Origin: a virus
Lineage: Duplodnaviria > Heunggongvirae > Uroviricota > Caudoviricetes
Length of the DNA: 64,000 nucleotides
Virus record (IMG/VR): IMGVR_UViG_3300045988_161152
Reading direction: 5' to 3' (one strand)
Under the pieces are notes generated by a model. That model worked only from the letters and a program-made list of their open reading frames with translations, was not told the DNA's origin and did not search any database. The position numbers and the translations under genes are program-made. This document shows positions 12,435 through 12,457 of this stretch, in pieces. Within the stretch, counting starts at the first letter, position 1; every line of letters begins with the position of its first letter.

Positions 12435-12457
12435 ACCGCTAGTCATTTGTTGAATAT
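12435..12457 (-). promoter_or_regulatory. Late promoter candidate (ACAAATGACTAG element plus TAGAAT -10)
   Basis: Minus-strand AACAAATGACTAGCGG followed by TAGAAT; same element recurs upstream of prt/darB and lyz. Confidence 0.35.

Follow-up and report, generated by a model that had tools for sequence, protein, structure and literature searches.

Boxes of the ACAAGTGACT type with a -10 hexamer behind them are a familiar feature of phage P1: they form its late promoter, which the late promoter activator Lpa switches on and which the P1 reference already carries in its annotation. The stretch analysed here (64,000 nt in full, hereafter the window) is a P1-like phage-plasmid, and we hold with high confidence that the recurrent elements in it are late promoters of a P1-type phage and depend on Lpa. 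The assignment draws on the anatomy of the elements, their identity with P1, the enrichment of the motif, its placement and orientation, its conservation in diverged relatives and an intact lpa gene, all observed directly in the sequences; the dependence on Lpa and the host protein SspA, and the binding of Lpa at -22, are taken from the literature. Since the four sites first noticed were already annotated in the P1 reference, the finding is correct but ordinary.

The window is 98-99.97% identical to P1 AF234172 across alignable blocks. In a whole-window blastn comparison, for which a rebuilt AF234172 served as the reference, it was collinear with P1, running from nt 66254 of the latter across the lox junction as far as nt 32275, with a few variable blocks. 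A 2-kb query around the LP26 element gave 99.5% identity to Escherichia phage P1, 99.8% to JL22 and 97.2% to P7. Seven of the 11 late promoters in AF234172 (LPmat, LPpro, LPlyz, LPdar, LPs, LPsit, LP23, LP26, LPpmgL, LPhot and LPpac) fall in the window (Table 1). At LP26, LPpmgL, LPpac, LPmat, LPpro and LPdar the sequence is that of P1, and LPlyz differs in flank bases only. The architecture, the downstream genes and the activator gene lpa are the same as for the P1 late promoters (AF234172 / NC_005856); nothing differs at the sites themselves, the differences being the missing hot/LPhot region and other variable blocks.

Table 1. Positions of the late promoter elements and related features; coordinates are those of the window unless another genome is named.
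Feature	Position	Strand	Position in AF234172	Box	Spacer	-10 hexamer	Context
LP26	12430-12450 (to 12451 with the full string)	minus	78485-78505	AAATGACTA, 12440-12448; 5' AC, 12449-12450	GCGG, 12436-12439	TAGAAT, 12430-12435	drives baseplate/tail operon 26-25-7-24-6-5
LPpmgL (predicted)	12440-12458	plus	78495-78513	TAGTCATTT	GTTG	AATATT	divergent from LP26
lpa (gene 10)	28707-29159	plus					late promoter activator; intact 150-aa ORF
LPpac	29189-29209	plus	90473-90493	ATGTGACTT, 29191-29199 (3/4 arm pairs)		TACCCT, 29204-29209	upstream of pacA (GTG start, 29246)
LPmat	36193-36213	plus	2676-2696 (annotated LPmat and Pmat)	ACAAGTGACTT (perfect palindrome)	CAGT	CAGAAT	faces mat
LPpro	49567-49587	plus	17249-17269	AAGTGACTA, 49569-49577 (3/4 arm pairs)		TAAATT, 49582-49587	darB/prt divergent region; drives prt-pro
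LPlyz	53288-53308	minus	20969-20989	AAGTGATTT, 53298-53306 (3/4 arm pairs)		TATCCT, 53288-53293	upstream of lyz
LPdar	62937-62957	minus	31212-31232	AAGTTACTT (perfect palindrome)	TGCA	TACCAT	upstream of lydA-lydB-hdf-darA
Gene 7 internal candidate	10725-10745	minus	76780-76800 (unannotated)				ACAAGTGACTGGTGATAACCT; codons 16-23; 1 mismatch to composite motif
D6 box examples (phage D6, MF356679.1)	25221-25241, 27727-27747, 45491-45511, 54124-54144	all minus		AAATCACA	N7	TANNNT

The architecture taken from the 11 P1 late promoters is (A)CA, the 9-bp inverted repeat AAGTNACTT, 4 nt and TANNNT. The inverted repeat AAGT-N-ACTT near -22 was found at LP26, LPpro, LPlyz, LPpac, LPmat and LPdar; the LP26 box is an imperfect palindrome in which 2 of 4 arm pairs match. 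The box-to-hexamer spacing is 4 nt everywhere (TAGAAT, TAAATT, TATCCT, TACCCT and TACCAT), including LPmat, where CAGAAT is an exception to TANNNT. With the P1 annotation mapped onto the window, the sites face gene 26, prt, lyz, pacA, lydA and mat. No -35 hexamer was found at LP26, LPpro, LPlyz, LPpac or LPdar, where the best candidate matched TTGACA at ≤3/6 positions with spacers of 15-19 nt. The exception among the window late promoters is LPmat, which overlaps the sigma-70 promoter Pmat and has a TTGACA 19 nt upstream of the common -10 hexamer.

The first-pass annotation had described a recurrent element at four sites, and all four of the strings that it quoted were located in the window: AACAAATGACTAGCGGTAGAAT (12430-12451, minus strand), AACAAGTGACTAG in the prt/darB region (49566-49578, plus), AACAAGTGATTTG at lyz (53297-53309, minus) and TTGACATGTGACT at pacA (29186-29198, plus). 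Its attribution of these sites to P1 late promoters activated by Lpa is supported, as they are LP26, LPpro, LPlyz and LPpac, each annotated in AF234172 with a '-22 region' and a -10 signal, and its statement that a canonical -35 is lacking agrees with the scan described above; a TTGACA within the pacA string lies just 12 nt from the -10 hexamer. The element upstream of the baseplate operon reads AACAAATGACTAGCGG-TAGAAT, with the TAGAAT hexamer after the box as described and on the minus strand as described, but the location given (12435-12457) overlaps the true span with a shift of ~5-6 nt. Two details need correction. The prt/darB hexamer given as TTAAAT is 1 nt off, the in-register TAAATT giving uniform box spacing, and in place of the box given as ACAAGTGACTAG the conserved feature is the inverted repeat AAGT-N-ACTT plus a 5' ACA.

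The LP26 sequence is annotated in AF234172 as 'late promoter LP26' (78485-78503; -10 signal 78485-78490; '-22 region' 78495-78503), with a remark that it was previously identified in GenBank X87824. The gene 26 ATG lies at 12400, and a consensus scan of 12300-12650 found no sigma-70 consensus promoter. For LPlyz the record likewise notes an earlier identification, as the late promoter of gene 17 (X87673), and LPpac is annotated between lpa and pacA. According to the AF234172 annotation notes, Lpa-dependent starts have been mapped for Ps and for the gene 17 (lyz), lydB/dar and gene 26 promoters. LPpro and LPpac are putatively Lpa dependent, with predicted start sites, on the basis of annotation.

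The predicted promoter LPpmgL is the LP26 palindromic box read on the opposite strand, TAGTCATTT-GTTG-AATATT. Its -10 hexamer departs from TANNNT, and no counterpart was seen when the JK004 orthologous sequence was read by eye. Support for LPpmgL as a late promoter looks thin. A C1 operator, O26 (ATTGCACTAATAATTTT; 12473-12489, minus), lies ~25 nt upstream of the LP26 box, and its closeness to LP26 ties the baseplate-operon region also to the immunity repressor, as annotated in P1.

Enrichment of the motif depended on its form. The composite motif ACAAGTGACTW-N4-TANNNT, with ≤2 mismatches allowed, had 8 matches in the window compared with 0.46 expected, an excess of ~15-fold; none of 100 dinucleotide shuffles gave 8 matches, and in Markov simulation the mean was 0.57 and the maximum 4. 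Six of the 8 matches are annotated late promoters, and LPpro is the sole zero-mismatch match. In P1 the composite motif had 11 matches (1.03 expected, Markov simulation). Shorter forms were at chance level in the window: 24 matches to the bare 9-mer AAGTNACTT with ≤1 mismatch (22.7 expected; no enrichment), 18 to AAGTNACTT-N4-TANNNT with ≤2 mismatches (14.5 expected; not significant) and 5 to the 13-mer of the first-pass annotation with ≤2 mismatches (2.6 expected; not significant). An unbiased over-representation scan of the window for 8-10-mers did not return the late-promoter box, because the sites are degenerate. A 2-mismatch match at 62625-62645 (minus), in the 3' end of lydA and 43 nt upstream of the lydB start, was set aside as probably a chance match, since its box is not conserved in JK004. 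The composite pattern was derived from window sites, and its enrichment there is therefore partly circular; JK004 provided the independent test.

The Lpa of Cronobacter phage JK004, a genome in which no gene bears a name, is 67% identical, and the composite motif had 9 matches in this genome compared with 0.40 expected. All 9 are noncoding, and 8 of them lie within 150 nt upstream of a same-strand start; such upstream zones make up 3.2% of the position-strand space (binomial P ~1e-11). The genes that the matches precede are orthologues of R, 23, 26, mat, pacA, prt and lyz. Over the 7 orthologous promoter pairs of P1-type and JK004 sequences, motif positions were 93% identical compared with 42% for the ±50-nt flanks. 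At LP26 the JK004 orthologue keeps the box and the -10 hexamer with diverged flanks; LPmat and LPpro are also conserved, and weaker counterparts of LPsit and LPdar are recognisable. The LPpac box, spacer and TACCCT are kept in the lpa-pacA spacer of 4 further relatives (Lpa 64-71% identical), one of which carries the perfect palindrome AAGTAACTT. JK004 (loci L005+L006) also has late-promoter-like boxes at 69127-69147 (minus), upstream of gene_100, which is taken as pmgN-like by position, and at 83283-83303 (plus), facing the ssb orthologue; at the matching P1 positions C1-controlled sigma-70 promoters are annotated.

Phage D6 (MF356679.1; loci L007+L008) has a more diverged Lpa homologue (31% identical), encoded beside pacA, and a different box. 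AAATCACA-N7-TANNNT had 11 matches in D6 (2.3 expected; simulation maximum 6), and the box lies upstream of prt, ddrB, lydA, R, pmgB, 23, 7, mat, darB and orf16. As in P1, a conserved box precedes TANNNT in the same register, beginning 15 nt before the hexamer, at the orthologous late genes prt, lydA, R, 23, 7 and mat. Unlike in P1, the box is AAATCACA rather than ACAAGTGA/AAGTNACTT and has no obvious inverted repeat; box and spacer read AAGTGACTT-N4 in P1 and AAATCACA-N7 in D6. The P1-type motif was rejected for D6, where it occurs at chance frequency overall, with a lone perfect match at 71094-71114. Judged from these sequences, activator and box appear to have changed together in the D6 lineage; a box that differs along with a diverged Lpa is as expected if Lpa reads the box. 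The D6 pairing of box and Lpa could help in designing specificity-swap experiments on the way in which RNA polymerase is redirected by Lpa and SspA.

The window Lpa shares 99.3% identity with that of P1 and falls in Pfam PF25716 (BPP1_LPA, 'Late promoter-activating protein'), scoring 193 bits against a cut-off of 35; an NCBIfam search gave no match, and a search by sequence for a solved structure of Lpa found none. For the AlphaFold model, which was built on an alignment of 11 sequences, pLDDT averages 74; a confident core (residues 20-90, pLDDT ~90) is predicted as helix-helix-helix-beta-hairpin. Its best PDB fold matches are the winged-helix DNA-binding domains of Fur/PerR, MarR and PadR, with high Foldseek probability and weak E (~1e-2). 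The modelled fold would fit a dimer reading a short inverted repeat, although this is only suggestive. Most Lpa homologues begin at the position of Met11 of the 150-aa ORF (28707-28739, plus), and residues 1-13 have pLDDT <50; the real lpa start may therefore be the second ATG. P1-like phage-plasmids are common, and the plasmid records carrying an Lpa homologue numbered 783.

Previous work has described 11 late promoters in P1, the site for Lpa being a 9-bp inverted repeat (PMC10695390). The sequence that Lpa binds is conserved and has its centre at -22, and host SspA is a needed coactivator (PMC3152322, citing Hansen et al. 2003). For P1 late promoters in general, a start ~7 nt downstream of the -10 hexamer that requires Lpa and SspA has been described (PMC3152322, PMC10695390, PMC8201110). 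The P1 late genes, which encode lysozyme, structural and packaging proteins, depend on Lpa (PMC8198154, PMC8201110). In the course of events that we propose, the host RNA polymerase holoenzyme alone would make poor use of the late promoter sites. When C1 repression is lifted, lpa would be expressed from a C1-controlled promoter; Lpa would then recognise the -22 box and, with SspA, polymerase would start ~7 nt downstream of the -10 hexamer. The operons turned on would be those for tail/baseplate (LP26), portal/protease (LPpro), lysozyme (LPlyz), holin/dar (LPdar), packaging (LPpac) and mat. We infer that Lpa may bind the palindrome within the promoter spacer as a winged-helix dimer, and that Lpa together with SspA on sigma region 4 may substitute for the missing -35 contact.

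Alternatively, Lpa with SspA could bind RNA polymerase and remodel sigma-70 region 4 in a manner resembling sigma appropriation, the -22 box being read only by the modified holoenzyme. Lpa has been termed 'an RNA polymerase binding factor' (PMC8198154), SspA in cryo-EM links sigma-70 region 4 to the beta-prime zinc-binding domain with no promoter DNA contact (PMC7515715), and a box centred at -22 sits in the spacer that polymerase itself covers. We nevertheless consider this mechanism unlikely: Lpa is stated to bind the -22 sequence (PMC3152322, PMC10695390), an inverted-repeat box is typical of a dimeric DNA-binding protein, the predicted winged-helix core of Lpa resembles the DNA-binding domains of Fur, MarR and PadR, and the D6 box changes together with Lpa. 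Direct binding and a modified holoenzyme are not mutually exclusive, and the difference from direct reading of the box by Lpa, the explanation that we prefer, is purely mechanistic. That we are dealing with weak sigma-70 promoters of the ordinary kind or with non-functional resemblances, sharing a box inherited without regulatory meaning, might be suspected from the chance frequency of the short motif versions, from P1-like genomes so alike that their mutual conservation says little and from the overlap of LPmat with a sigma-70 promoter having TTGACA, but is very improbable given the ~15-fold excess of the composite motif, the position of all strong matches but one just upstream of a late gene in the correct orientation, the survival of box and -10 hexamer in JK004 while flanks were randomised, the missing -35 hexamer and the published genetics showing that late genes require Lpa (PMC8198154, PMC10695390).

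With the elements taken as Lpa-dependent late promoters, the unannotated match inside gene 7 deserves mention. JK004 partly retains it as ACAAATGACCGGTGATACGCT at the same codons, in a poorly conserved N-terminal stretch of the protein, and gene 7 of D6 has its own D6-type late promoter. The gene 7 site, which does not belong to the established set, might be a further Lpa-responsive site in coding sequence, giving an internal late transcript that boosts 24-6-5; we think this doubtful.

The T4 middle promoters that use MotA/AsiA and the C-dependent late promoters of Mu are served by the sigma-70 holoenzyme and have a -10 without a usable -35, for which a phage activator site substitutes; the MotA box is found close to -30 and the site for Mu C reaches from -30 to -55. 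The P1 late promoters are like these in their use of the sigma-70 holoenzyme, in their sigma-70-type -10 hexamer and in that a phage activator site would replace the -35 contact, and unlike them in that the box is nearer the start (-22, inside the spacer), host SspA is needed and the activators are unrelated. Mu C and T4 late transcription are mentioned in PMC3152322.

It had been proposed that the motif alone lets late operons be delimited, from a list of sites that covered 4 of the 7 annotated window late promoters and missed LPmat, LPdar and the predicted LPpmgL. Motif searches supported the composite form (8 matches against ~0.5 expected, JK004 placement P ~1e-11), whereas the bare and short forms were at chance. 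The motif does mark the starts of Lpa-driven operons; it does not mark their ends, and loose versions match by chance. The morphogenetic operons pmgL-M, pmgN-Q, pmgR-S and pmgT have annotated C1-controlled sigma-70 promoters, the only late-promoter box among them being the weakly supported LPpmgL. With ends unmarked, morphogenetic operons driven by sigma-70 and chance matches to loose forms, the delimiting claim therefore holds only in part. For new P1-like phage-plasmids, the specificity of the composite motif (ACA + AAGTNACTT + N4 + TANNNT) suffices for annotating the starts of late operons. The P1 late-promoter signature was recoverable from raw sequence by a tool-less reader, which has little import beyond correct annotation.

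Several other features of the window were recorded. Directly 3' of lpa and immediately before the LPpac box is a GC-rich hairpin, GCCCG-TTC-CGGGC, followed by a T run (29170-29188, plus), which is kept in relatives L009-L013. The hairpin resembles a terminator and would shield pacA against early transcription coming from lpa. The ~4.9 kb at 18484-23380 are absent from P1 and hold P7-like and lambdoid Ea/Ea22-like genes. At 24660-25591 the hot region with the late promoter LPhot is replaced relative to the P1 reference; GAGTTACTT at 24956 was rejected as LPhot, as it lies inside an ORF and lacks a -10 hexamer in register. The IS1/isaB region also differs from P1 (replaced at 54851-55969), and mod is without the IS5 that is present in mod of the reference mutant. 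The top over-represented words in the window are Chi and the C1 operator, both known P1 features: the Chi octamer GCTGGTGG occurs in 48 copies on both strands combined (5.7 expected), and the C1-operator core ATTGCTCTAA in 10 copies.
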